This document shows, piece by piece, positions 1-8,601 of a stretch of DNA of 8,601 nucleotides (position 1 is its first letter; each line of letters starts with the position of its first letter). Both the position numbers and the translations under genes were made by a program. Origin of the DNA: a virus (lineage: Duplodnaviria; Heunggongvirae; Uroviricota; Caudoviricetes); the IMG/VR virus record IMGVR_UViG_2700989489_000020. The stretch is one strand, 5' to 3'. Below the pieces are notes generated by a model. That model saw only the letters and a program-made list of their open reading frames with translations, did no database searches and was not told the DNA's origin.

Positions 1-1036
1 TTACCCCGGCGTGTAGTTCGCTATGGCATTTACGGCACAGCGGAATAACAAACAAATCATCAGCCTTTGTTCCCATCCCTCCCAGTCCATGACCAATGAT
101 GTGATGCGGATCATCTGCCTGATTACCGCACGTCATGCATTTCTGCGTTTTTACCCAGCGCGTGTATACAGGCATCTCTTCCCGTTGTGGTTTCTGGCGC
201 TGGAGATACTGAGCCGGTGACTCCGGATCAACGGCAATGCTGACCACCGTCTTTTCCTGTGGCGGGTTTTGCTGGTGGGCGTGAGGCAGCGGCGCAAGAT
301 TTTTTGTGCGCTGCTTCAGTATGATGGTGGCGGTCTGCTCTCCCGGTACGATGTCGCTTTCACGGTACATTGAGCGGATTTTTTCCGCACGCAACCCCAG
401 CGAACGACGTAATACCGCTTCCGGTAGCGCGTCCGCCACCTGATTGCGGACCGCCCACCAGGATAATTCAGCCAGAGATAATTCACGCTCCTGCGTACCG
501 CTTATTGCGTGACCGATGACGTCAATCATCCATGCTGACAGGTTTTGATGAGCAAGTTGCTCGAGTGATTCGGATGTCTGGTCACGCAGCTGGTTGTCGC
601 AGTGCCAGCACAACACCATTGCGCCGGTACCATAACGGTGAATAACGGTTTCACTGTGATGATAGTCACCATGAGGCCACTGGCAGGATTTGACATGACG
701 CAACAGCCAGTCAGACAGTGCACCAGCGCCACCAACAGCACGAATCACACGCTCATTGCTGAAAAACGGCAGTAATGATTTATCCTCCGCCAGCGGCTGG
801 CGAACGGCAGGGACGATGCCGGACGGCAGACCGCGCATGCTTTTCGGTTCCGGCTCCACAAGCACTCGAGGGTTATGGAATACCTGCATGGATTCACGGC
901 CTGGTTTAAGGACCACCAACCCAAGTTCCGGTACCGGAACAGGTCGAAGTAATACCCGCACGTTACCTCCAGATGCGTTGCTGGAATGTGCGGGACGGAC
1001 GCGGTGGGCGCTCGGAGTACGGCAGCCTGACGTAGA
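1..1036 (-). CDS. DUF968/YdfU-like prophage protein, C-terminal part (partial; continues past window start), with Cys/His cluster
   Basis: Minus-strand frame checked codon by codon for 1-760 and 740-1036: no stop from 1036 to 1. Translation ends ...EEMPVYTRWVKTQKCMTCGNQADDPHHIIGHGLGGMGTKADDLFVIPLCRKCHSELHAGV at the window edge. Not in the ORF track because no in-window stop. Family name is from memory of the Qin ydfU-rem-hokD neighbourhood. Confidence 0.6.
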
Positions 1037-1241
1037 TTATCCAGTGACGATAATCGAGGCTGAGGGCTTTCCTAAACTCATACCCACGTCTGCGGTAGTT
1101 CTGAATCAGCCATTCGGCCTGTTCTTCAGTGCATGGGGCGTGCCGGAACCAGTCAGATTTGAATGCATGAGAACGCCGCCCGTGCCTGCTGGCAAAGACG
1201 GCTGAATTATCAGAATTGTGTAGTCTGGAATTTTGCGCCAT
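963..1241 (-). CDS. 92-aa ORF with strong RBS; probably the 5' part of the same DUF968-like gene, separated by a frameshift in 963-1036
   Basis: ORF track 963..1241. ATG at 1241 preceded on the minus strand by GGAGAAAG. Overlaps the downstream open frame by about 70 nt in a different frame. Confidence 0.5.
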   Translation of the reverse strand: MAQNSRLHNSDNSAVFASRHGRRSHAFKSDWFRHAPCTEEQAEWLIQNYRRRGYEFRKALSLDYRHWIIYVRLPYSERPPRPSRTFQQRIWR

Positions 1242-1310
1242 CGGCTTTCTCCGGTGGCACAGTGTTACTCAACAGGGGTTCAGCCCTGCGCTGAATTGTA
1301 GATGAATTCA

Positions 1311-1571
1311 CTAATCTTCAAAAGCAGAAAAACCAGCCTTAATCCCAGCTTCTTTCAGAGACGGCAACGATGTGACAAATTCATTTGCACGCAAAATAAA
1401 ACCATCCGTCACAAGCCCATCCACAAAATGAATTAACGCAGCTCCACTCTTCCTTTGTTGAGACTGTAAACATTTAATACGGCAGTGGCTGACAATAGCG
1501 CCCTTCTCAACGCGCACAGTATAGAGGCCATCTTCACTAAAAATTTCACGTAATTCTTCGATTCTCATCAA
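1311..1571 (-). CDS. Small hypothetical protein (86 aa); sits where rem lies next to hokD in Qin-type prophages
   Basis: ORF track. GGAAGGA about 9 nt upstream of the ATG on the minus strand. Identity with Rem not verified. Confidence 0.5.
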   Translation of the reverse strand: MMRIEELREIFSEDGLYTVRVEKGAIVSHCRIKCLQSQQRKSGAALIHFVDGLVTDGFILRANEFVTSLPSLKEAGIKAGFSAFED

Positions 1572-1650
1572 CAGAATCCTTCCAGATAAATAGCACTCCC
1601 CTGTTCGGGGTCCATCCCTCTTCTCCCTGCGCGCTACTTAAGTATTTTTG

Positions 1651-1680
1651 ATTCTATTCCGGCGCCGTCCGGAACTTCAA
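1651..1680 (-). promoter_or_regulatory. Candidate sigma70 promoter for the 1311..1571 gene
   Basis: Minus strand reads TTGAAG (plus 1675-1680), 18-bp spacer, TAGAAT (plus 1651-1656). Lies just downstream of the hok terminator. Confidence 0.3.
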
Positions 1681-1685
1681 ACGCG

Positions 1686-1720
1686 TTGAAAATAAAAACA
1701 AAAACCCGCCGAAGCGGGTT
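1686..1720 (-). terminator. Rho-independent terminator after hok
   Basis: Minus strand reads AACCCGC-TTCG-GCGGGTT followed by TTTTGTTTTTATTTTC; 7-bp GC-rich stem plus U tract, about 70 nt after the hok stop. Confidence 0.6.
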
Positions 1721-1788
1721 AAGTGCGGGTGCGTTGAGGATGCCTGACACATCAGAGGTGGCGAGGGATTTCTCCCCCGCCTGGTCTC

Positions 1789-1944
1789 TTACTCCTCAGG
1801 TTCGTAAGCTGTGAAGACAGCGACCTCCGTCTGGCCGGTTCGGATTCGTACCTCGCAGAGGTCTTTCCTCGTTACCAGTGCCGTCACTATGACGGTTAAA
1901 CAGATGACGATCAGGGCGATTAACATCGCCTTTTGCTGCTTCAT
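1789..1944 (-). CDS. hokD: Hok/Gef family type I toxin (51 aa), HokD/RelF-like
   Basis: Translation from the internal Met of ORF 1789..2001: MKQQKAMLIALIVICLTVIVTALVTRKDLCEVRIRTGQTEVAVFTAYEPEE, matching my recollection of HokD. AAGGAG 9 nt upstream of that ATG. Single TM segment plus conserved Cys. Confidence 0.85.
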   Translation of the reverse strand: MKQQKAMLIALIVICLTVIVTALVTRKDLCEVRIRTGQTEVAVFTAYEPEE

Positions 1945-2136
1945 AGCCTGCTTCTCCTTGACCTTTCGGTCCGTAAGAGGCAATCTATATGTGACGAGCA
2001 TATAGGGGCCTCACTTCGATTTATAGTCGGGTGGGGCTTTTATCTATCTGCCGTTGGTGTTCATGCCCGAGGCAGATAGCCTCAAGCACCCGCAGCAATC
2101 CTACTTAACTCTGCCGTTACAGCAAACCGTTTTCGC

Positions 2137-2160
2137 CCGATATGGGAATTCCCATATCGG
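2137..2160. repeat. 24-bp perfect palindrome CCGATATGGGAATTCCCATATCGG
   Basis: Read directly; symmetry breaks at the flanking bases. Intergenic between the binding-protein gene and the hok leader. Confidence 0.9.
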
Positions 2161-2243
2161 AATGAATTCAGTTCACCTGGCGAGGCTTAGCGTACAATTT
2201 TTTCCGTTTTGTGAGCTGCCCCTACATGCCGCTGGCGCGGCAT

Positions 2244-2273
2244 CCGGAAAAAGAATCCACGTCCTGAAGGACG
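2244..2273 (-). terminator. Possible intrinsic terminator after the substrate-binding protein gene
   Basis: Short stem CGTCC-TTCA-GGACG directly after the TGA stop (2280-2282), followed on the minus strand by TGGATTCTTTTTCC. Stem is short, so weak. Confidence 0.35.
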
Positions 2274-2279
2274 AGGATG

Positions 2280-3038
2280 TCAAGTGCCTTTCCTGGTCCA
2301 GCCATATTTTTTGAATGCAGGCGCCGCTTCATCGGTTTGTAGCCATTCTGCAAATCGACGGGTTTCATCATTTGCATCCTGACGTACTGTAATGTTCATA
2401 TCACGCCATATCACGTAGTCTGGCGCTATTTCCACGACATCACCAATTTCTGGATTACTGGCTGCCCAGTCAGCCCAGGTTATCCAGACATCTGCTCCAG
2501 GCTGATTCTCAAGAGCCTTACGTGCAGTTCCGCTATTGGGCGCATATAAAATAATATTTTTTCGGATTGCGGCGACAGTTTCTATATTCCCTTTACGTCC
2601 GGCAATATCTTCCCAGACGCCAGTGCCTGATGTATTACTGGTACCACCACCATCATTAACAATTACGCCAATCCCAGGTCTGGTCAGGTCGTCAATACTC
2701 CGGATATTTTTAGGATTACCTTTCTTTACCAGTAAAATACTTTTTCGCAGATAAAGAGGCTGAATATCTTTTTCACTGAAGCTGTCTTTATGGTCCCGAA
2801 TGATAGCCAGAGCAGATTGTTCTGATGCGCCAAACAAGATATCTGCATTTTTTTTGGCATCTTCATTCCATTTGTTCTGTGGGCCGTAATGAACGTTCAC
2901 TATAATACCTGTTTTTTCGGCATAAAGTTTGGCTGCATCAAGCAAGGCTGTATGCGGGCCACCAGGACCATACAGATTGATATCAGCATAAGCAGCAGAA
3001 GACAGGAATATTAAAAAACCTGCCATTATGTTCCTCAT
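2280..3038 (-). CDS. Secreted periplasmic substrate-binding protein (ModA-like solute-binding fold), orphan cargo gene
   Basis: ORF track 252 aa. AAGGAG 7 nt upstream of the ATG at 3038. Sec-type signal peptide MRNIMAGFLIFLSSAAYA then DINLYG. C-terminal ...FKKYGWTRKGT resembles the ModA C-terminus from memory. Visibly AT-rich relative to neighbours. Confidence 0.75.
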   Translation of the reverse strand: MRNIMAGFLIFLSSAAYADINLYGPGGPHTALLDAAKLYAEKTGIIVNVHYGPQNKWNEDAKKNADILFGASEQSALAIIRDHKDSFSEKDIQPLYLRKSILLVKKGNPKNIRSIDDLTRPGIGVIVNDGGGTSNTSGTGVWEDIAGRKGNIETVAAIRKNIILYAPNSGTARKALENQPGADVWITWADWAASNPEIGDVVEIAPDYVIWRDMNITVRQDANDETRRFAEWLQTDEAAPAFKKYGWTRKGT

Positions 3039-3202
3039 AAAAAACTCCTTTTATTGGTTATCATGAAATAAAGTTATAAACACTACAAATAATATATATT
3101 ACATCCAGATAAACTTATCCGACTTTACCTCGTGCATAGCTTGTTATTTAAAGTCAACAAAATAAGGAAAATTATACGCATATTGAAGAGTATAAACCTT
3201 AC

Positions 3203-3230
3203 ATGTTGATTACATTTTTGTAATCAACAT
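3203..3230. promoter_or_regulatory. 28-bp palindrome ATGTTGATTACA-TTTT-TGTAATCAACAT upstream of the binding-protein gene
   Basis: Perfect 12-bp inverted arms, 4-bp spacer, inside the AT-rich leader about 165 bp upstream of the start at 3038. No U tract on either side, so not a classic terminator. Confidence 0.5.
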
Positions 3231-3289
3231 CCTGTTTGGAATAGCCAGCCTTTAATGGATAACTATTTCTGACAATGCAATGAGTATAA

Positions 3290-3897
3290 TCAAGTCCATC
3301 TTCCACTGAGAATTAGAGGCGGCATGCTTTTTCCGGCTCTTGCCGGATATCCGTAATTGTCCATAATCTGCAGATTTATACCTTCTGCATGACCTGTCAG
3401 CGAAAATTTGTCCGGTGTTTCTACGGGAATGACATCAAAAGTTACACGCACTCGCGTTACCGTGTAGACCTACTTTCCTGCACTTGCAAGATCACAGTGG
3501 TGTAACCGTAACAGGAATTTATTCTCTGGACCGGCAGTAAATCCCTGAGTGGCGTGGTTCCCATATCAATTTCCCGCCAGGCAGCCTCCATTGCCAGCGT
3601 ACAGGCTGGAGCCATGACCTGCCCTTTAAATCTGGCCCGACCATCCCACCGGACGTGTTCTTCTCCCCTGAACTTAGGTACAGTCATCTCCAGTGGCACA
3701 AAAGTGTCAGCGCCATAATTTTTGACCGTTATCGCGCTACGGATATTTTGTTGACTGGTGAAAATCACCCCGCAGAATCAGGCTTATTCCCTTAACCTGG
3801 GCTTTCATCCTGACCGCCGCCTCACTACGACCAATCAGACTGCCGATGCATTTTACCTTCATTGTTAGTATCATGATTTCAGGCCTGCACCATCCGC
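3290..3897 (-). pseudogene. Decayed coding region: protein-like minus-strand reading frames broken across three frames
   Basis: Minus strand gives a 42-aa stretch (MKVKCIGSLIGRSEAAVRMKAQVKGISLILRGDFHQSTKYP), ORF 3457..3768, then an unstarted open frame ...VTRVRVTFDVIPVETPDKFSLTGHAEGINLQIMDNYGYPARAGKSMPPLILSGRWT ending at 3290. No single intact ORF, no good RBS. Family not recognised. Confidence 0.3.
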
Positions 3898-4631
3898 TCA
3901 TTGCCCGGACTTCCGACAAATCCCGGCAACCATATCCCGGTGCTTGTTCAGCTCCCGCAGCGCGGCGCAGACTCGCTCCCACTTCTGGACATGATTCTTC
4001 GCCCTACGCAGTTCGCGATTTGCCATATGCAGCGATGGCAAAATCAAATCATCTTCTCGCGTTGCAGTAAACGATGGCAGCGACTGCACAATGTCCGCCA
4101 CAGTTTCTGTTTTAATATCTTCCTGTGTTGCATCTTTCTGTACCGGTAACGAACACCGGCTGGCTGAGGAAAGGCTTTACCATCGGTTTCCGCTACCGAT
4201 TCAACTTTCGGCTCTGCTGGTAAATTATCACCTGGTATGCAGTAACGAATTTTACCGTTCTGGTTTACGCGAATCAGACGACCTTTGCTGATTGCCATTG
4301 CCAGCGTTGAAGCAACTTTGCGGGATGTTGTACCGAACAGCGTAGCCAGTTCATCCGCCGTTTGTGGTCCGCGTTGTTCAATCGTCGCGGTTAAATCGCA
4401 CTCTGAGATTTTCGCTTCTGTTGCCGTGGTGGTTTCTTCTGGCGCTGGCTGTTCCTGCTGAACGTTGTTATCAGCCACACGCCAGGTGTATACGCTTTTA
4501 TCAACGAAGCCAGCCTTTTTCAGTTCCCACAGCTCGTTCAGTACTTCTTCACGACTGATATCAAGTCGCGCAGCCAGCTCTACCGACGTGGCTTTTCCCA
4601 TCGCTTTCAGTGCGTCAAAAACAGTCTCCAT
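3898..4631 (-). CDS. Winged-helix prophage protein (DUF1627-like), apparently frameshifted near 4140-4180
   Basis: ORF 4044..4631 has GGGAGGAAA 5 nt upstream of the ATG and an HTH-like N-terminus, but its last ~40 aa are low-quality. A second frame (open from 4176, ORF 3898..4101) encodes plausible sequence [73 protein letters not shown]1627 name is from memory. Confidence 0.5.
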
Positions 4632-4664
4632 AAATTTCCTCCCGGTAAAAAATCACTTCTCAAC

Positions 4665-5330
4665 TCAAACAAAACCAGCCGCTTTCCGGCGTTCATATTC
4701 CTGTTTCAGCAACTCAATTGGCGTTGGCCCCGACGGGCGTTTGGGGGCCGCCAGTTGTCGCCGGACTGGCGGAACGCTCAGGCCGTTACTAACATGCTTT
4801 GCCCATTTCGTCAGTTGCCGTTCTGCAAGCCGTTTTAATTCCCCTTCGGTCATCTGGCGCTCAATCCCCTTTGAACGCATCTCGAGGCAAATGTGATACA
4901 GCACAGGCTGAGACCACGGGTACTTATCACTTCCGTCGTATCGCCAGGACTCATTGCGCCAGCGGCGGTACTCCTCCATCACAGCATCCACCGTCAGACC
5001 GAATGGATTGGCTCCGCTTTTCGAAATCAGTGCCACAAACTCAGCCAGGTCCGGAGGCCATGTTTCACCCGCCCGGCAGCGGTCCATGCACTGGCGGCAG
5101 ACCTGCCGGATTTGCTGCTCAGTCATCGCGCCAATCTGTGCAATCCAGAGCTTCGAAGGTGCGGCCCCGTTCTTCTGGATCCAGCGGTTCGAATAAACCA
5201 CCCCCATGAGTTCCCACAGCTTCCAGGCCGTTTCCGTCGCTGATAAATCCGTTTTCACGTTCCCACTGCTCACGTGCTGCCCGAATTTCCTGAACTGCCC
5301 GTGATGCGGTGCCACCTGGTGCTGCTGCAT
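4665..5330 (-). CDS. Lambda P-like replication protein (DnaB helicase loader); true start uncertain (5330, 5204 or 5126)
   Basis: C-terminal half aligns by eye with lambda P (YPWSQPVLYHICLEMRSKG...GELKRLAERQ versus lambda YPWKSNAHYWLVTNLYQNMRAN...AELRRKAADE). Internal ATG at 5126 overlaps the O-like stop as ATGACTGA. Confidence 0.8.
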   Translation of the reverse strand: MQQHQVAPHHGQFRKFGQHVSSGNVKTDLSATETAWKLWELMGVVYSNRWIQKNGAAPSKLWIAQIGAMTEQQIRQVCRQCMDRCRAGETWPPDLAEFVALISKSGANPFGLTVDAVMEEYRRWRNESWRYDGSDKYPWSQPVLYHICLEMRSKGIERQMTEGELKRLAERQLTKWAKHVSNGLSVPPVRRQLAAPKRPSGPTPIELLKQEYERRKAAGFV

Positions 5331-6159
5331 GGTTTACCCCTTTGCTGACTGGTTTAACCTGCGCCCTGACGTGATTTACGTGACGGGCGAATTTCTGCTC
5401 CCACTGAATCTGCGTAAACACTTTCCCCTCCGCTGCCCAGTAGTCCCGGAAGGCGGCAAGTTCAGCAGGTGTAAATTCTGTCTCCGGCAAAGCCATCCCC
5501 CACAACGCAGCCCGTCGTCGAAAATCCCGTGACGGATACCAGCTATCGCTCATCGGGAATTTTCCGATGGGTTCGCTCAGGCCATACAGGAATACAGGGG
5601 GGGCTGCCTGTAACGACAAAACTTCCTGCTCACTGGTCGGAGCACTCTCGCGTGCGTTATGTGTGGGGTTTAGATCTTTGGGTTCCTTTGGGTTCCGTGA
5701 TCCGTTTTTGGGTGTCTTTGATGGAAAATTTGGGTGTCTTTGGTTATTTTCCATGCAGCTAAGAGTTCTGTTTTTGGGTCTGTTTTGTGCTGAAACATAA
5801 CCATTTTCGGTACTGTTTTTATTAACAGCACCAATTTTACCCACCTTTAAAGACTCCCGTTTTTGGGTGTATTCAGGCTCGGCAACACTTTCTTCTACAC
5901 CGATAAGTCGGTACACCACAATTTGCTTTGTTCTGCCTTTTCTCTCACCGGTATCAACAATTAACCCAATCTCCATCAGGTGTCGTAAGCTGTCCTGCAC
6001 AGTCTTTTTGTTCAGTTCCGTTACTTCTGCCAGTGCAGATACAGACGGGTATGCACACAAATCGGCACCGCACATATCAGCAAGCCAGGTCAATACTGAC
6101 TTACTGGATGAACTGCCGGTTTTCACCTTTTTAGCCCATCGTAGTGCATCGATACTCAT
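5119..6159 (-). CDS. Replication initiator (O-like): N-terminal winged-helix DNA-binding domain, low-complexity linker, DnaT-like C-terminal domain
   Basis: ORF track 5119..6234; start placed at the internal Met MSIDALRWAKK (ATG 6157-6159, AGGGG about 8 nt upstream). Linker region coincides with the iteron array. Domain assignment from recalled family features. Confidence 0.8.
   Translation of the reverse strand: MSIDALRWAKKVKTGSSSSKSVLTWLADMCGADLCAYPSVSALAEVTELNKKTVQDSLRHLMEIGLIVDTGERKGRTKQIVVYRLIGVEESVAEPEYTQKRESLKVGKIGAVNKNSTENGYVSAQNRPKNRTLSCMENNQRHPNFPSKTPKNGSRNPKEPKDLNPTHNARESAPTSEQEVLSLQAAPPVFLYGLSEPIGKFPMSDSWYPSRDFRRRAALWGMALPETEFTPAELAAFRDYWAAEGKVFTQIQWEQKFARHVNHVRAQVKPVSKGVNHAAAPGGTASRAVQEIRAAREQWERENGFISDGNGLEAVGTHGGGLFEPLDPEERGRTFEALDCTDWRDD
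5676..5871. repeat. Iteron array and AT-rich stretch: candidate phage origin of replication inside the initiator gene
   Basis: Six direct copies of core TTTGGGT: CTTTGGGTTCC at 5676-5686 and 5686-5696; TTTGGGTGTCTTTG at 5707-5720 and 5729-5742; TTTGGGTCTG at 5773-5782; TTTGGGTGTA at 5862-5871. AT-rich 5783-5858 lies between the last two. Confidence 0.6.
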
Positions 6160-6682
6160 ACGAACCCCTGGCAGACATTTGTTTATCTGCAAAGTAATAT
6201 TGGTATTGCTGACGATACGCGTGCTTGAAAGCAATAGCTTTTTCTATAAGCTCGTCAGTCTCACGTTCCACAACAACTGGATCCGCAAAAAGCAGCCCGG
6301 ACTCCACCACATCGCCATATTCTTTGTTTAACCCGGCGATCATGTACGTAATGCTTTTTCCGTCAGTAATTTCACAATACAATCTGAAATCGCTGATCCG
6401 GATAGCCTCCATAATTGCCGGAATCAGCGCCGTGAATTTGTCACGCTTATCTCTGGTGTCGATAGCTTTCCAGCGTTCGAATATCTTCACCCGGTTAACG
6501 CCCAGCGCCCGTTGATCAACCTCGCCATCATTAAACGTGACGCGTTGAACATCGATGTTCGGGCGTTCTTTCAGAGCCCAGAATGCTTCCGTGATTAATA
6601 TCGTCGCCTGCTCCTGTGTCATTCCTGGTCGGCATACCCAGGTATCCAGAGCCTCACAAACCTGTTCAGTGGTGATTTTCAT
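6131..6682 (-). CDS. YdaT-like protein in the cII position (183 aa)
   Basis: ORF track. Sits between the Cro-like gene and the initiator; overlaps the Cro-like stop by 17 nt and the initiator start by 29 nt. YdaT call rests on synteny with Rac racR-ydaS-ydaT and a loosely remembered motif. Confidence 0.55.
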   Translation of the reverse strand: MKITTEQVCEALDTWVCRPGMTQEQATILITEAFWALKERPNIDVQRVTFNDGEVDQRALGVNRVKIFERWKAIDTRDKRDKFTALIPAIMEAIRISDFRLYCEITDGKSITYMIAGLNKEYGDVVESGLLFADPVVVERETDELIEKAIAFKHAYRQQYQYYFADKQMSARGSYEYRCTTMG

Positions 6683-6893
6683 TGTTCAACCGCCCCGCCC
6701 GCTTTGCCTTACGATATTCGTCATAAACTTTGGGGTCGTACTGAAGTTCCCCGCCGGATGCCTCTTGCAGGCGCATCGCGCGACCTTCAGGAACCAGTTC
6801 CCCCCATGCAGCAACGCTTGCCAGCCTAACTCCTGCGACATTGGCAAGCTTTGTTTTGCTGCCAAAAAACGCTATAGCATCAATTTTCAACAT
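6666..6893 (-). CDS. Cro-like HTH regulator (P22 Cro / YdaS family)
   Basis: 75 aa. AAGGGG 6 nt upstream of the ATG. Core FFGSKTKLANVAGVRLASVAAWGELVPEGRAMRLQEASGGEL resembles P22 Cro from memory. Divergent from the repressor. Confidence 0.75.
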   Translation of the reverse strand: MLKIDAIAFFGSKTKLANVAGVRLASVAAWGELVPEGRAMRLQEASGGELQYDPKVYDEYRKAKRAGRLNNENHH

Positions 6894-6969
6894 ATCGAAC
6901 CCCTTAGATTTTCCTAAGGAAACTAGATCGTAGAGAAACCTAAGTCAAGAAAAATTAGAATTACCTAAT
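6894..6969. promoter_or_regulatory. Divergent control region with three 16-bp dyad operators and two back-to-back promoters
   Basis: Operators of form YTTAG-N6-CTAAR: CTTAGATTTTCCTAAG (6903-6918), CGTAGAGAAACCTAAG (6929-6944), ATTAGAATTACCTAAT (6954-6969), spaced 25-26 bp. Minus-strand promoter: TTGACT (plus 6943-6948), 17 bp, TAGTTT. Plus-strand -10 TAGAAT (6956-6961) ends 8 nt before the repressor ATG, with a poor -35. Confidence 0.6.
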
Positions 6970-7377
6970 ATGAAAAACGAAACCTTCGGTGCTCGCCTCT
7001 TATACAGGCGAAAAAAATTAAAACTGTCTCAGGCCGCATTAGGTAAGCTGGTCAAAGTGGCTCACGTAACAATTTCTCAATGGGAAAGAGATGAAACACA
7101 GCCAGCGGGGAAGAGATTATTCGCACTGAGCCAGGCGCTTCAGTGCTCGCCGACTTGGCTTCTTTTTGGAGATGAAGATAAGCAACCAGGCGAACCGATC
7201 CCAGATAATCAGCCAGTCAATCTGACAGAAGATCAAAAAGAGTTGCTTCAACTGTTCGACGCACTGCCTGAGTCAGAGCAAAAGGCTCTGTTGTCAGAGA
7301 TGCGTGCTCGAGTTGAGAATTTCAACAAACTTTTTGAAGAACTACTCAAAGCTCGCAAAAGAAGCGCAAATAAATAA
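6970..7377 (+). CDS. CI-like prophage repressor, XRE-family HTH, no S24 peptidase domain
   Basis: 135 aa. HTH in LSQAALGKLVKVAHVTISQWERDE. Too short for a LexA-like autocleavage domain and no such motif seen. No Shine-Dalgarno; apparently leaderless. Confidence 0.85.
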   Translation: MKNETFGARLLYRRKKLKLSQAALGKLVKVAHVTISQWERDETQPAGKRLFALSQALQCSPTWLLFGDEDKQPGEPIPDNQPVNLTEDQKELLQLFDALPESEQKALLSEMRARVENFNKLFEELLKARKRSANK

Positions 7378-7410
7378 CCCCCCTTTTTTTCGCAACTCTC
7401 TGTAATAAAA

Positions 7411-7440
7411 AGCACAAACTTTCAAATACTTGTGTTTTTT
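7411..7440 (+). terminator. Weak candidate terminator after the repressor gene
   Basis: AGCACAA pairs with UUGUGUU (one G-U), 12-nt loop, then UUUU. Large loop makes it weak. Confidence 0.3.
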
Positions 7441-7451
7441 ACATCAAGAAG

Positions 7452-7505
7452 CTTAGGTTTTTCTACACAAAAAGCTTGACCATAACTCTTAGGCTATTCT
7501 AAATT
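7452..7505 (+). promoter_or_regulatory. Putative PL-like promoter with two operator-like sites
   Basis: CTTAGGTTTTTCTACA (7452-7467) and CTTAGGCTATTCTAAA (7488-7503) share the half-site and N6 spacing of the 6903-6969 operators. -35 TTGACC (7476-7481), 18-bp spacer, -10 TAAATT (7500-7505). Confidence 0.45.
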
Positions 7506-7584
7506 CTACTCATCAAGACACCGCACGGTGTTCTCAGCAAACAGTTCCGCTACCCGGCGTTAAGGGGAAGCAGAGGATTTCTCA

Positions 7585-7941
7585 GTGGGCGAAGTCAAAC
7601 ATCAGAATGGAAGGCGTCCAGGGATCAGCAAAGAAACAGCGATGGCGCTTTATATTGATATCAGCGCCATTGCCGGACAGGTAAGAGTTATCAGAGCGGT
7701 AACTAAGCGGTATGCGCCTTTACTTCAGAAAGTCTCTGGTGAGTGCACCGAAGATATTGTCAACGATTTCGTCATCGAACTGCGAGGACTCATCTTCAGT
7801 TACAAGGTGACCACAATTTTTGCAGATGGCTCCCGCGAAACTGTCAGAGCCCTGCGGCTTAAAGGATGTGTCAAAGACTTAGCCACCACATTCTGGGCAA
7901 GAAAACTTGATTGTATTCATAACCAATTTCCTCTCGAGTAA
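7585..7941 (+). CDS. Hypothetical protein, first gene of the left operon (118 aa from GTG; alternative ATG at 7642)
   Basis: ORF track. GAGGA 7 nt upstream of the GTG at 7585. No recognisable family; no N-like arginine-rich motif. Confidence 0.5.
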   Translation: MGEVKHQNGRRPGISKETAMALYIDISAIAGQVRVIRAVTKRYAPLLQKVSGECTEDIVNDFVIELRGLIFSYKVTTIFADGSRETVRALRLKGCVKDLATTFWARKLDCIHNQFPLE

Positions 7942-8013
7942 CAGACCCCTCAGAGGATACCACCTCGCCTGACGTGGTTAAAAAGCAGGCAACGCTAACC
8001 ACAAGGAGCCGAC

Positions 8014-8232
8014 ATGCAGAAACGAGACCCCGTCATCATCGCGCCAGACTATACCGATGATGAACTTTATGAGTGGATGCACCAGAAAATTAAGGCGGTG
8101 CAGGACCTGAAATGGGCCAATGAAGCCAGGGCTAAGCAGGCTGAAAATCTGTCCGCTCTGGAGCAGGATATCACCAATCTGGAAAAAGCAGCGGCATTAA
8201 GCATTGCCAGAATGATTACATACCCACGTTAA
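8014..8232 (+). CDS. Hypothetical small protein (72 aa)
   Basis: ORF track. AAGGAG 7 nt upstream of the ATG. Predicted helical, acidic N-terminus. Function unknown. Confidence 0.55.
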   Translation: MQKRDPVIIAPDYTDDELYEWMHQKIKAVQDLKWANEARAKQAENLSALEQDITNLEKAAALSIARMITYPR

Positions 8233-8254
8233 TAGCTAACCAACGAGGCTAATA

Positions 8255-8521
8255 ATGGAATTTAAAGATTTACCAACGCCATTACAGGAAATGGCATCGA
8301 ATATAGTTCGTTCACAACTGGCTACTCTTGACCTTAGTACCGCAGAAAAAGAAACCATCGATAATATGGTTCGTAATGTGCGCAATGCTTTTTCTGGGCT
8401 ATATGGTTCTGATAATCAAAAGCAGGAAAGCGATGTTAATAAACGGGTAATTTCTGTTTGCGTGAATGGCCATGTGAGGTGTACTGGCAATAGCGGACAC
8501 TACCATTTGTTCTTTTTTTAA
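8255..8521 (+). CDS. Hypothetical protein (88 aa as read); 3' end probably replaced by IS-derived sequence from about 8480
   Basis: ORF track. GAGG 8 nt upstream. Last ~13 codons lie inside the inferred IS terminal repeat. Confidence 0.5.
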   Translation: MEFKDLPTPLQEMASNIVRSQLATLDLSTAEKETIDNMVRNVRNAFSGLYGSDNQKQESDVNKRVISVCVNGHVRCTGNSGHYHLFFF

Positions 8522-8601
8522 GCAGCCATCTGATGATATTTTTCCCTGAAGGCTGCCGGGGAGATATTCCCCAGACGAGAGTGACGACGCTGACGATTGT
8601 A
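8480..8601 (-). mobile_element. Right end of an IS3-family insertion sequence (terminal repeat plus transposase 3' end); element continues past the window
   Basis: Plus strand from 8480 reads TGTACTGGCAATAGCGGACAC, resembling the IS3 terminal repeat as I recall it (TG..GCAATAGTGGACAC). Transposase stop lies 38 bp inside that end. Confidence 0.55.
8518..8601 (-). CDS. IS3-family transposase (OrfB-type), C-terminal 27 codons only
   Basis: Minus-strand translation YNRQRRHSRLGNISPAAFREKYHQMAA-stop, matching the conserved C-terminal pattern of IS3-family transposases (compare IS3 ...[24 protein letters not shown], from memory). Confidence 0.65.
   Translation of the reverse strand, partial: YNRQRRHSRLGNISPAAFREKYHQMAA

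Follow-up and report, generated by a model that had tools for sequence, protein, structure and literature searches.

Introduction

Paa was reportedly named an adhesin in the original papers that described it. The gene, paa or adfO, lies beside hok in O-island 57 (OI-57). It has long been known as a virulence gene, linked to adherence, in attaching-and-effacing and Shiga-toxin Escherichia coli, and is already in use as a molecular marker of risk in EHEC/STEC. In OI-57, adfO is always accompanied by ckf (PMC8565820), and the gene shows a strong association with seropathotypes that are eae-positive and linked to HUS (PMC4366395); its transcription, reported under the name acfC, is induced when EDL933 is incubated in the contents of rumen and rectum (PMC8524897). 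Porcine EPEC mutants lacking the identical or orthologous protein have reportedly lost attaching-effacing adherence (PMC8565820, PMC2749873), and EHEC adfO mutants both adherence to HeLa cells and secretion of several proteins (PMC8565820).

Two described proteins are close relatives of Paa. PEB3 of Campylobacter jejuni (2hxw, 3fir, 3fj7, 3fjg) shares 54% identity with it across the entire mature protein, is of equal length and has the same invariant motifs. It resembles Paa in being encoded by an orphan gene in the Campylobacter loci; however, that gene is chromosomal, unlike the copy of paa described here. PEB3 also has a sequon, DFNVS, at which it is reportedly N-glycosylated, whereas Paa has DSFSEKD at that place and no sequon. 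PEB3 binds 3-phosphoglycerate (3-PG) and phosphoenolpyruvate (PEP) (PMC8835900). The second relative, AcfC of Vibrio cholerae (VC0841; 4jb7), is 52% identical to Paa. Like Paa, it is a colonisation factor gained by horizontal transfer and encoded on a mobile island, and it too is exported without a transporter partner. In VPI-1 a gap of 6 bp separates acfC from the chemoreceptor gene acfB upstream of it (PMC5976639), whereas paa has no chemoreceptor neighbour. AcfC is periplasmic by fractionation, and ELISA showed binding to mucin and to the sulfated glycans heparin and chondroitin sulfate; its deletion leaves adhesion to Caco-2 and HT-29MTX cells unchanged, the phenotype being one of chemotaxis to mucin and not of adhesion (PMC5976639). 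The binding proteins ModA, Sbp and CysP also belong to Pfam family SBP_bac_11 and match Paa weakly and locally, around the NTSGT anion loop. Sbp is some 80 residues longer than Paa, and paa shares no operon with a permease or an ATPase.

Comparable genetic settings have also been described. Lambdoid morons between genes P and Q (nin-like), for example relBE-hokD of Qin, likewise place one cargo gene, with putative signals of its own and atypical composition, in a slot that varies between sister prophages. They are expressed in the lysogen, as is paa according to the literature; unlike relBE-hokD, the paa cargo is a mosaic that was probably imported along with the remains of a dead fimbrial gene. 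A second allele of paa is found on ETEC-type IncF virulence plasmids (for example pCFS3246-1, WP_001257942.1), where it is flanked by IncFII repA and by IS1 and the STa enterotoxin gene. Here we compare with these systems a prophage-borne copy located in a stretch of 8,601 nucleotides, which we refer to in full as the window.

Results

The orphan binding-protein gene of the window is paa/adfO

The open reading frame analysed here is intact, with 252 codons, and the features in and around it are collected in Table 1. At the DNA level it is 100% identical to loci that RefSeq labels 'paa: AcfC family adhesin Paa' (WP_001449026.1), and the same complete identity was found in at least 563 complete Escherichia coli genomes annotated with paa (EHEC/STEC/aEPEC); in all, the gene is present in 624 of the 5426 complete E. 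coli genomes. Both of the adfO primers from the literature have exact matches, at 2947–2964 and 2463–2482, giving a product of 502 bp against the 501 bp published, and eleven PPompW/Stx2a phage records carry the annotation Paa or adherence factor. On the strength of the identity to annotated loci, the primer matches and the hok (ckf) neighbour, we conclude that the gene is paa/adfO (Z2053, O-island 57/CP-933O-type prophages). The preliminary description of this DNA had left the function of the gene as unknown, and this has to be replaced by a named virulence gene.

The gene itself does not differ in any way from the published paa/adfO, and the identity of hok with the ckf neighbour and the type of prophage (PPompW records) match as well. 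Differences were seen only around it: the O-like gene is intact here, whereas it is interrupted by IS1203 in the O157 prophage PV15-279, and in comparison with the published paa/adfO prophages the DUF1627 gene is frameshifted in this copy and the end of an IS600 element is present at 8474–8601.

Table 1. Positions of features at the paa locus (numbering of the window).
Feature	Position	Strand	Remarks
hok/mok/sok type I toxin-antitoxin locus ('ckf' of O-island 57)	1789..2091	-	hok 1789–1944; mok 1789–2001; Rfam sok 1942–2091
Variable slot of the prophage holding the cassette	2111..3927		Homology to paa-less sister prophage ends at 2110 and restarts at 3928
Perfect 24-bp palindrome CCGATATGGGAATTCCCATATCGG	2137..2160		Within the paa–sok junction piece
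Mobile paa module (terminators, CDS and leader)	2212..3240	-	Common to IncF ETEC-type plasmid alleles
Second hairpin ATGCCGC-gcca-GCGGCAT	2226..2243	-	Downstream of paa; sequence reading; kept in plasmid allele
Terminator-like hairpin AUCC-U-CGUCC UUCA GGACG-U-GGAU, then UCUUUUUCC	2246..2278	-	Directly 3' of paa stop
paa/adfO CDS	2280..3038	-	252 aa; PEB3/AcfC/Paa family; Pfam SBP_bac_11
Signal-peptide coding part	2985..3038	-	Residues 1–18, MRNIMAGFLIFLSSAAYA; cleavage predicted after AYA
AT-rich leader, ~28% GC	3039..3240	-	Moves together with paa
Shine-Dalgarno AAGGAG	3045..3050	-	6 nt before ATG (3036–3038); kept in plasmid and E. albertii alleles
Perfect 12-bp inverted repeat ATGTTGATTACA-N4-TGTAATCAACAT	3203..3230		In leader; candidate operator
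Dead fimbrial-subunit gene fragment	3244..3711	-	Joined to paa module; tblastn with intact plasmid fimbrial protein

Paa is predicted to be an exported member of the PEB3/AcfC/Paa family

The Pfam model SBP_bac_11 matches the protein along its full length (residues 20–247, E 5.5e-34, 118 bits against a cut-off of 25). The N-terminus MRNIMAGFLIFLSSAAYA, followed by DINLYGPGG, was assigned as a signal peptide by reading the sequence: a basic n-region leads into a hydrophobic core and the cleavage motif AYA, and there is no lipobox cysteine in the peptide or at the residue after it. The alignment with the mature PEB3 crystal chain 2hxw begins at residue 19 of Paa. Together with the AAGGAG and the unbroken frame, these features uphold the earlier reading of the locus as a complete gene for a secreted binding protein.

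In searches Paa matched the PDB entry for PEB3 with an E value of 1.2e-81 over residues 11–248, and Vibrio AcfC with 3.5e-81 over residues 16–248. The protein retains all 58 of the positions that are invariant among 24 family members, it has the mature N-terminal motif of the family, D[IV]N[LM]YGPGGPH, and the motifs YGPGGPH, NTSGT-VWED, SG and D-WITW-DW are intact. Since identity to three crystal structures is 52–54%, the fold is not in question, and on this evidence Paa is a predicted Sec-exported protein of roughly 26 kDa with the class-II periplasmic-binding-protein fold of the PEB3/AcfC/Paa family. Comparison of paa with the plasmid allele gave a dN/dS ratio of 0.07, and comparison with that of E. 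albertii one of 0.055; by this estimate the gene is under strong purifying selection.

A ModA or tungstate-type protein had been the initial framing, and this was not sustained. The modA model TIGR01256 scored 18.3 bits against a cut-off of 62.5, the sulfate-binding-protein models TIGR00971 and NF008022 scored 21.5 against 155.5 and 22.6 against 288, respectively, and the CysP model NF008106 scored 19 bits against 308, so that assignment to any of these groups was rejected. Weak local similarity to Sbp and CysP was nevertheless detected, at E values of 6e-5 to 6e-4 (1sbp, 3.5e-4).

The gene occupies a variable slot inside a lambdoid prophage at ompW

It can be seen from the neighbouring genes that paa sits between the replication gene P/DUF1627 region and hok-DUF968-rusA-Q. 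In strain 20.1, which has an identical prophage integrated beside ompW, the gene lies some 12 kb inside the element, with int/xis at ompW on one side and Q, lysis, terminase and capsid genes on the other. Related prophages hold other genes at this place: HNH, ead and DUF977 genes occupy the slot in the paa-less sister prophage, and relBE-ydfV-flxA occupy the equivalent slot in K-12 Qin. The slot is therefore variable and lies next to hok, and the data support the view that paa is a prophage moron in the usual sense, as had been suggested at the outset. The Rfam sok match in the hok locus scored 103.9 bits, and sok was the only Rfam family matched significantly; matches to isrK (24.9 bits against 50) and sR55 fell below threshold and were dropped. 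The piece at 2105–2225 was present in 580 genomes and never apart from chromosomal paa, so that the idea of an independent mobile repeat was rejected.

Comparison with the IncF plasmid allele showed that the module is 86–87% identical at the nucleotide level and 93% identical in protein, with the coding sequence, leader and terminators in common over 2212–3224. The plasmid allele differs in that it has no fimbrial fragment, no phage-type hok neighbour and no junction piece (2111–2211). The upstream end of the module agrees with the limit at 3240 that was drawn in the preliminary description. The fimbrial fragment covers residues 22–182 of 195, with two frameshifts, one stop and both ends missing, and RefSeq labels it 'fimbrial protein, frameshifted; internal stop'. 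We conclude that the prophage cassette is a mosaic of the paa module and a dead fimbrial fragment. This points to assembly of the cassette on a virulence plasmid before it was captured by the phage.

The leader is strongly AT-rich and contains a conserved palindrome

The paa open reading frame has a GC content of 43.9% and a GC3 of 34.8%, against 49.9% GC for the rest of the window and a GC3 of 47–67% for the neighbouring genes, with the exception of a rem-like open reading frame at 36%. The region 3039–3289 has 27.9% GC, and the minimum of the window (0.293, at 3001–3300) falls within the leader region. From these figures the gene is moderately, and its leader strongly, richer in AT than the surroundings, which gives a graded form to the contrast in base composition that was first noted.

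The leader is 73% identical overall to that of the IncF plasmid allele, its 5' 100 nt being better conserved. It holds TATAAT at 3171–3176, which is kept in the plasmid allele, and TTGACT at 3152–3157; however, a sigma-70 consensus scan of 1600–3900 returned 5 sites against 4.2 expected by chance. The core of the inverted repeat, ATTACAAAAATGTAAT, is also kept in the plasmid allele. Beyond the stop codon, the terminator-like hairpin has a U-run and a folding energy of -18 kcal/mol for its 55-nt context (z -2.4), and it too is kept in the plasmid allele.

The absence of a transporter partner is a trait of the family

No permease or ATPase gene was found in the window or in the 35 kb of the identical prophage of strain 20.1, where the closest ABC gene is oppF of the host, which lies beyond the prophage at a distance of about 20 kb. 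Paa had been called an orphan when the locus was first described, and the absence of a cognate transporter from the larger prophage sequence agrees with this. The plasmid allele is likewise a single orphan gene. Among homologous loci from taxonomically diverse bacteria, none of the 23 had an ABC ATPase within four genes on either side, and no ABC or permease Pfam family was among the 25 most-matched families (each with at least two of the 132 neighbour proteins scanned). We conclude that the orphan state is a trait of the PEB3/AcfC/Paa family at the 23 loci sampled. Members of the family were found in Escherichia, Citrobacter, Edwardsiella, Aeromonas, Vibrio, Campylobacter, Helicobacter, Mucispirillaceae, Desulfovibrio, Spirochaetes, Cetobacterium and Endozoicomonas, and many of them come from animal hosts or gut samples.

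Discussion

Taken as a whole, the locus is very probably explained as paa/adfO, a horizontally acquired lambdoid P-to-Q moron that codes for an exported, orphan, putative oxyanion binder aiding adherence. Identification of the gene brings no new biology, since a known virulence moron has been found again; what the present analysis adds is the mosaic nature of the prophage cassette with its dead fimbrial gene fragment, the orphan status of the family across the 23 sampled loci, and the conserved palindrome in the paa leader. The point of remaining interest is the mechanism, as a soluble binding-protein fold without a transporter has been named an 'adhesin'.

A true adhesin, as the RefSeq name of the protein has it, would reach the surface and bind receptors on host cells or in mucus, for example sulfated glycans, in the first step of attaching and effacing. 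This would account for the poor adherence reported for paa and adfO mutants (PMC8565820; PMC2749873), it would be in keeping with the ELISA results for AcfC (PMC5976639), and PEB3 has also been described as an adhesin, to go by the titles cited in PMC5976639. However, the sequence of Paa has a signal peptidase I type signal peptide only, with no lipobox, beta-barrel, autotransporter or anchor domain, and the soluble fold takes up the entire mature protein. Moreover, AcfC is periplasmic and its loss does not alter adhesion to the two cell lines assayed (PMC5976639), and because the adfO mutant also loses the secretion of unrelated proteins (PMC8565820), the effect of the mutation is suggested to be indirect. 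We regard direct adhesion as possible but somewhat doubtful. A conventional substrate-binding protein would instead feed 3-PG, PEP or a sulfate-like nutrient to a distal chromosomal ABC importer and so give a metabolic gain. Such a role fits the SBP_bac_11 fold and the weak similarity to Sbp and CysP, and a missing adjacent transporter is compatible with a distal one. Unlinked genes of this type do occur in E. coli, where sbp lies apart from cysPTWA. The ligands reported for PEB3 (PMC8835900) would suit such a role too. Against it stand the absence of ABC ATPases within four genes of all 23 family loci and of permeases or ATPases among the 25 families most matched by neighbours; as linkage would normally be expected at least somewhere, a dedicated transporter is disfavoured. 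The gene also travels on its own, as a one-gene module of both plasmids and phages, and all models for transporter-linked binding proteins score far below their cut-offs. We therefore consider nutrient import unlikely.

Two further explanations concern whose gene this is. A protein that serves the phage, for example by changing the envelope so as to exclude superinfecting phages, would be at home in a moron slot beside the accessory cargo gene hok, relBE occupying the equivalent slot of Qin, and the PHROGs entry for the family reads 'unknown function'. However, most homologues reside on the chromosomes or plasmids of many bacteria in surroundings that are not those of a phage, no defence-type neighbours or domains were seen, and the documented phenotypes are in host colonisation and adherence (PMC5976639; PMC8565820). 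A part in phage–host surface interactions, which had been raised earlier, is left unsupported, and we think a phage-serving function very improbable. That the gene is host core DNA, with the prophage boundary elsewhere, has next to no probability and can be taken as refuted: only 624 of 5426 complete genomes have the gene, it lies well within a prophage that has int/xis at ompW as its boundary and is absent from sister prophages, and nothing was found in favour of this reading.

For the exported oxyanion binder that we prefer for the locus as a whole, the following course of events can be envisaged. Paa would be exported to the periplasm, and possibly released in part, and would there bind a host-derived oxyanion, which may be a phosphorylated metabolite or a sulfated glycan. 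Binding would in turn promote early adherence and colonisation, probably in an indirect manner, through effects on sensing or secretion, rather than by way of a surface-anchored adhesin. In its most specific form, which we put forward tentatively and would not be surprised to see fail, Paa is not an adhesin at all; instead it belongs to a family of transporter-less oxyanion binders of the periplasm that sense a mucosal phospho- or sulfo-compound and signal to chemotaxis or secretion, the 12-bp repeat in the leader being the operator of a regulator. If this is true, the repeat would be the site through which some regulator controls the gene, and the prophage would provide its lysogen with a portable 'mucosa sensor'.

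Results

Identity of the gene

Of 5426 complete Escherichia coli genomes, 624 contain the 1.4-kb region surrounding the ORF, and in 563 of them its identity is 99% or higher; the matching loci are annotated 'paa: AcfC family adhesin Paa' followed by 'fimbrial protein (frameshifted)'; 11 deposited PPompW/Stx2a phage records likewise annotate the gene as Paa/adherence factor. According to a review of O157 O-islands, adfO (Z2053) of O-island 57 (OI-57) resembles Paa and never occurs without ckf (Z2054), which encodes a killing factor of the hok type (PMC8565820). Published adfO PCR primers (PMC4366395) were located in the window, with exact matches at 2947-2964 (-) and 2463-2482 (+) and a predicted amplicon of 502 bp compared with the published 501 bp. 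Taken together, the genome identity, the phage annotations, the adfO/ckf pairing and the primer matches identify the gene as paa/adfO and its hok neighbour as ckf. In PHROGs v4 the protein falls in phrog_11834 (E 4e-176), filed under 'unknown function'; as Paa/AdfO is nevertheless named in the literature and in RefSeq, the phage database has an annotation gap here.

The N-terminus, MRNIMAGFLIFLSSAAYA followed by DINLYGPGG, looks like a typical Sec/SPase-I signal peptide and lacks a lipobox cysteine. The ORF has a GC content of 43.9% (GC3 34.8%) and the 250 nt upstream, where GC reaches its minimum for the window, only 27.9%, compared with 49.9% for the rest of the window. Every feature in the preliminary description is thus found at the coordinates given there (see table).

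Features of the window around paa
Feature	Position	Strand	Remarks
hok/mok	1789-2001		
sok	1942-2091		Rfam match, 103.9 bits
Perfect 24-bp palindrome	2137-2160		CCGATATGGGAATTCCCATATCGG, EcoRI site within; in 100-nt junction piece between paa terminators and sok
Terminator-like hairpin	2255-2278		after paa stop codon, then U-run
paa/adfO ORF	2280-3038	-	intact, 252 codons
AAGGAG	3045-3050		6 bases ahead of ATG
Perfect 12-bp inverted repeat	3203-3230		ATGTTGATTACA-N4-TGTAATCAACAT, in paa leader
Dead fimbrial subunit gene fragment	3244-3711	-	residues 22-182 of 195
DUF1627 phage gene	4044-4631 / 3898-4101	-	HTH-containing, frameshift-split
P-like gene	4665-5330	-	
O-like gene	5119-6234	-	
CII/YdaT-like gene	6131-6682	-	
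cro	6666-6893	-	
cI-like repressor	6970-7377	+	

Prophage setting

The window represents a lambdoid prophage's early-right arm, in which P and DUF1627 are followed by the paa cassette, hok and then DUF968-RusA-Q. The DUF1627 gene is frameshifted here; O157 PV15-279 and a sister prophage without paa (L002) have intact copies. The hok/mok and sok genes lie approximately 190 nt downstream of the paa ORF. A sub-threshold Rfam isrK match at 1699-1780 (-) (24.9 bits, threshold 50) overlaps the strong post-hok terminator hairpin at 1703-1720 and is probably just that terminator.

Window bases 1-8475 are contiguous and 100% identical in the bovine E. coli strain 20.1, whose prophage integration site adjoins ompW, with int/xis at one end and the genes for Q, lysis, terminase and capsid at the other. 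The last 127 bases match, in two aligned pieces, an IS600 copy approximately 2.5 kb further on in that strain. The right end of the window (8474-8601) is the terminus of an IS600-family element that cuts into an ORF (8255-8521), with loss of a portion of the early-left arm that strain 20.1 still has.

A mosaic cassette in a variable slot

Homology between the window and L002 stops at 2110 and restarts at 3928. The intervening slot holds paa and the fimbrial fragment in the window, and HNH, ead, DUF4406 and DUF977 genes in L002 (2623-6383); in K-12 Qin, relBE-ydfV-flxA lies upstream of hokD. The interval from DUF1627/P to hokD is a hot spot for cargo, and paa sits in it as a moron.

The segment 2212-3224/3240, comprising two terminator-like hairpins, the CDS and the leader, is shared at 86-87% identity with alleles on IncF ETEC-type plasmids, and the end coordinate of 3240 in the preliminary description proved to be the true upstream edge of this mobile module. 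Plasmid paa is also solitary, with repA on one side and IS1/STa on the other. The fimbrial fragment has two frameshifts, one stop and neither end, is 86% identical in nucleotide sequence to an intact gene on IncFIB plasmids, and is fused by its 3' truncation to the paa module at approximately 3240. From this mosaic structure it seems that fusion of the module with fimbrial DNA, for which a virulence plasmid is a plausible site, preceded its capture by the phage. Comparison with the plasmid allele gives paa a dN/dS of 0.07, and comparison with Escherichia albertii one of 0.055; Paa is therefore under strong purifying selection.

The hairpin after the stop codon has a folding energy of -18 kcal/mol in a 55-nt context (z = -2.4). 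In the leader, the repeat core ATTACAAAAATGTAAT is conserved in the 86%-identical plasmid allele, as is a TATAAT (3171-3176) approximately 30 nt downstream of the repeat. The two form a candidate operator/promoter; because a generic promoter scan gave a result not above chance, no promoter is claimed. The junction piece with the 24-bp palindrome tracks chromosomal paa across the 580 complete genomes that have it, and was seen on a plasmid only once.

Family membership and lack of a transporter partner

Residues 20-247 are covered end to end by Pfam SBP_bac_11 (E 5.5e-34). In a structure-database search the protein matched Campylobacter jejuni PEB3 (E 1.2e-81) and Vibrio cholerae AcfC (E 3.5e-81), compared with only about 1e-4 for classical sulfate-binding proteins; protein identity is 54% to PEB3, 52% to AcfC and 93% to the plasmid allele. 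The ModA/tungstate-type assignment raised earlier was rejected on HMM comparison, because the NCBIfam ModA, Sbp and CysP models scored 18-23 bits against cut-offs of 62-308.

A family scan with one genome per species returned 24 loci, from E. albertii, Citrobacter, Edwardsiella, Aeromonas, Vibrio, Campylobacter, Helicobacter, Mucispirillaceae, Desulfovibrio, a spirochaete, Cetobacterium, Endozoicomonas and Elioraea. Paa and 23 of these 24 homologues share 58 invariant positions, including YGPGGPH, NTSGT-VWED, SG and D-WITW-DW, so that the family motifs are intact in Paa.

No permease or ABC ATPase was found in the 35 kb of the strain 20.1 prophage, which upholds the earlier description of an orphan; the nearest ABC gene to paa is host oppF, beyond the prophage. 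Likewise, at none of the 23 usable family loci is the homologue four genes or fewer away from an ABC ATPase. This crude test works, since it did detect ABC ATPases farther off in the same loci. Among 132 neighbour proteins, the 25 most frequently matched Pfam families also included no ABC_tran or permease family. We conclude that orphan status is a trait of the whole PEB3/AcfC/Paa family and not a peculiarity of the prophage copy. Among the 23 loci, a chemoreceptor neighbour was seen at the V. cholerae locus only, where acfC starts 6 bp after acfB, a methyl-accepting chemotaxis gene (6073-8729 of that locus). A DcuC-type C4-dicarboxylate carrier lies near the homologue in four Campylobacter-type loci.

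Discussion

The gene is the known paa/adfO in a known context, an OI-57-type prophage with ckf adjacent. What the preliminary description recorded therefore stands, and its reading as a ModA-type gene of unknown function falls, the gene having already been named. Four minor points, for which we found no statement in the available literature, leave this verdict unchanged: transporter linkage is lacking throughout the family, the cassette is a mosaic with a fimbrial fragment, the palindrome in the leader is conserved, and PHROGs still labels the family 'unknown function'.

In porcine EPEC, paa contributes to A/E lesion formation (PMC2749873). In EHEC, adfO favours HeLa adherence and the secretion of a number of proteins, both of which are reduced in the mutant (PMC8565820). 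Contents of the rumen and rectum induce the gene in EDL933 (PMC8524897). A direct adhesin would fit the adherence phenotypes; AcfC, a periplasmic protein that binds mucin and sulfated glycosaminoglycans, affects chemotaxis to mucin and intestinal distribution, with no effect on adhesion to cell lines (PMC5976639). We regard direct adhesion by Paa as possible but rather doubtful. That Paa serves a distal ABC importer, as its binding-protein fold might allow, seems to us improbable beside the family-wide absence of linked transporters. The ligands of PEB3 are 3-phosphoglycerate and PEP (PMC8835900). We favour a reading in which Paa would be a periplasmic, possibly partly released, oxyanion-binding protein whose ligand binding may promote adherence indirectly.
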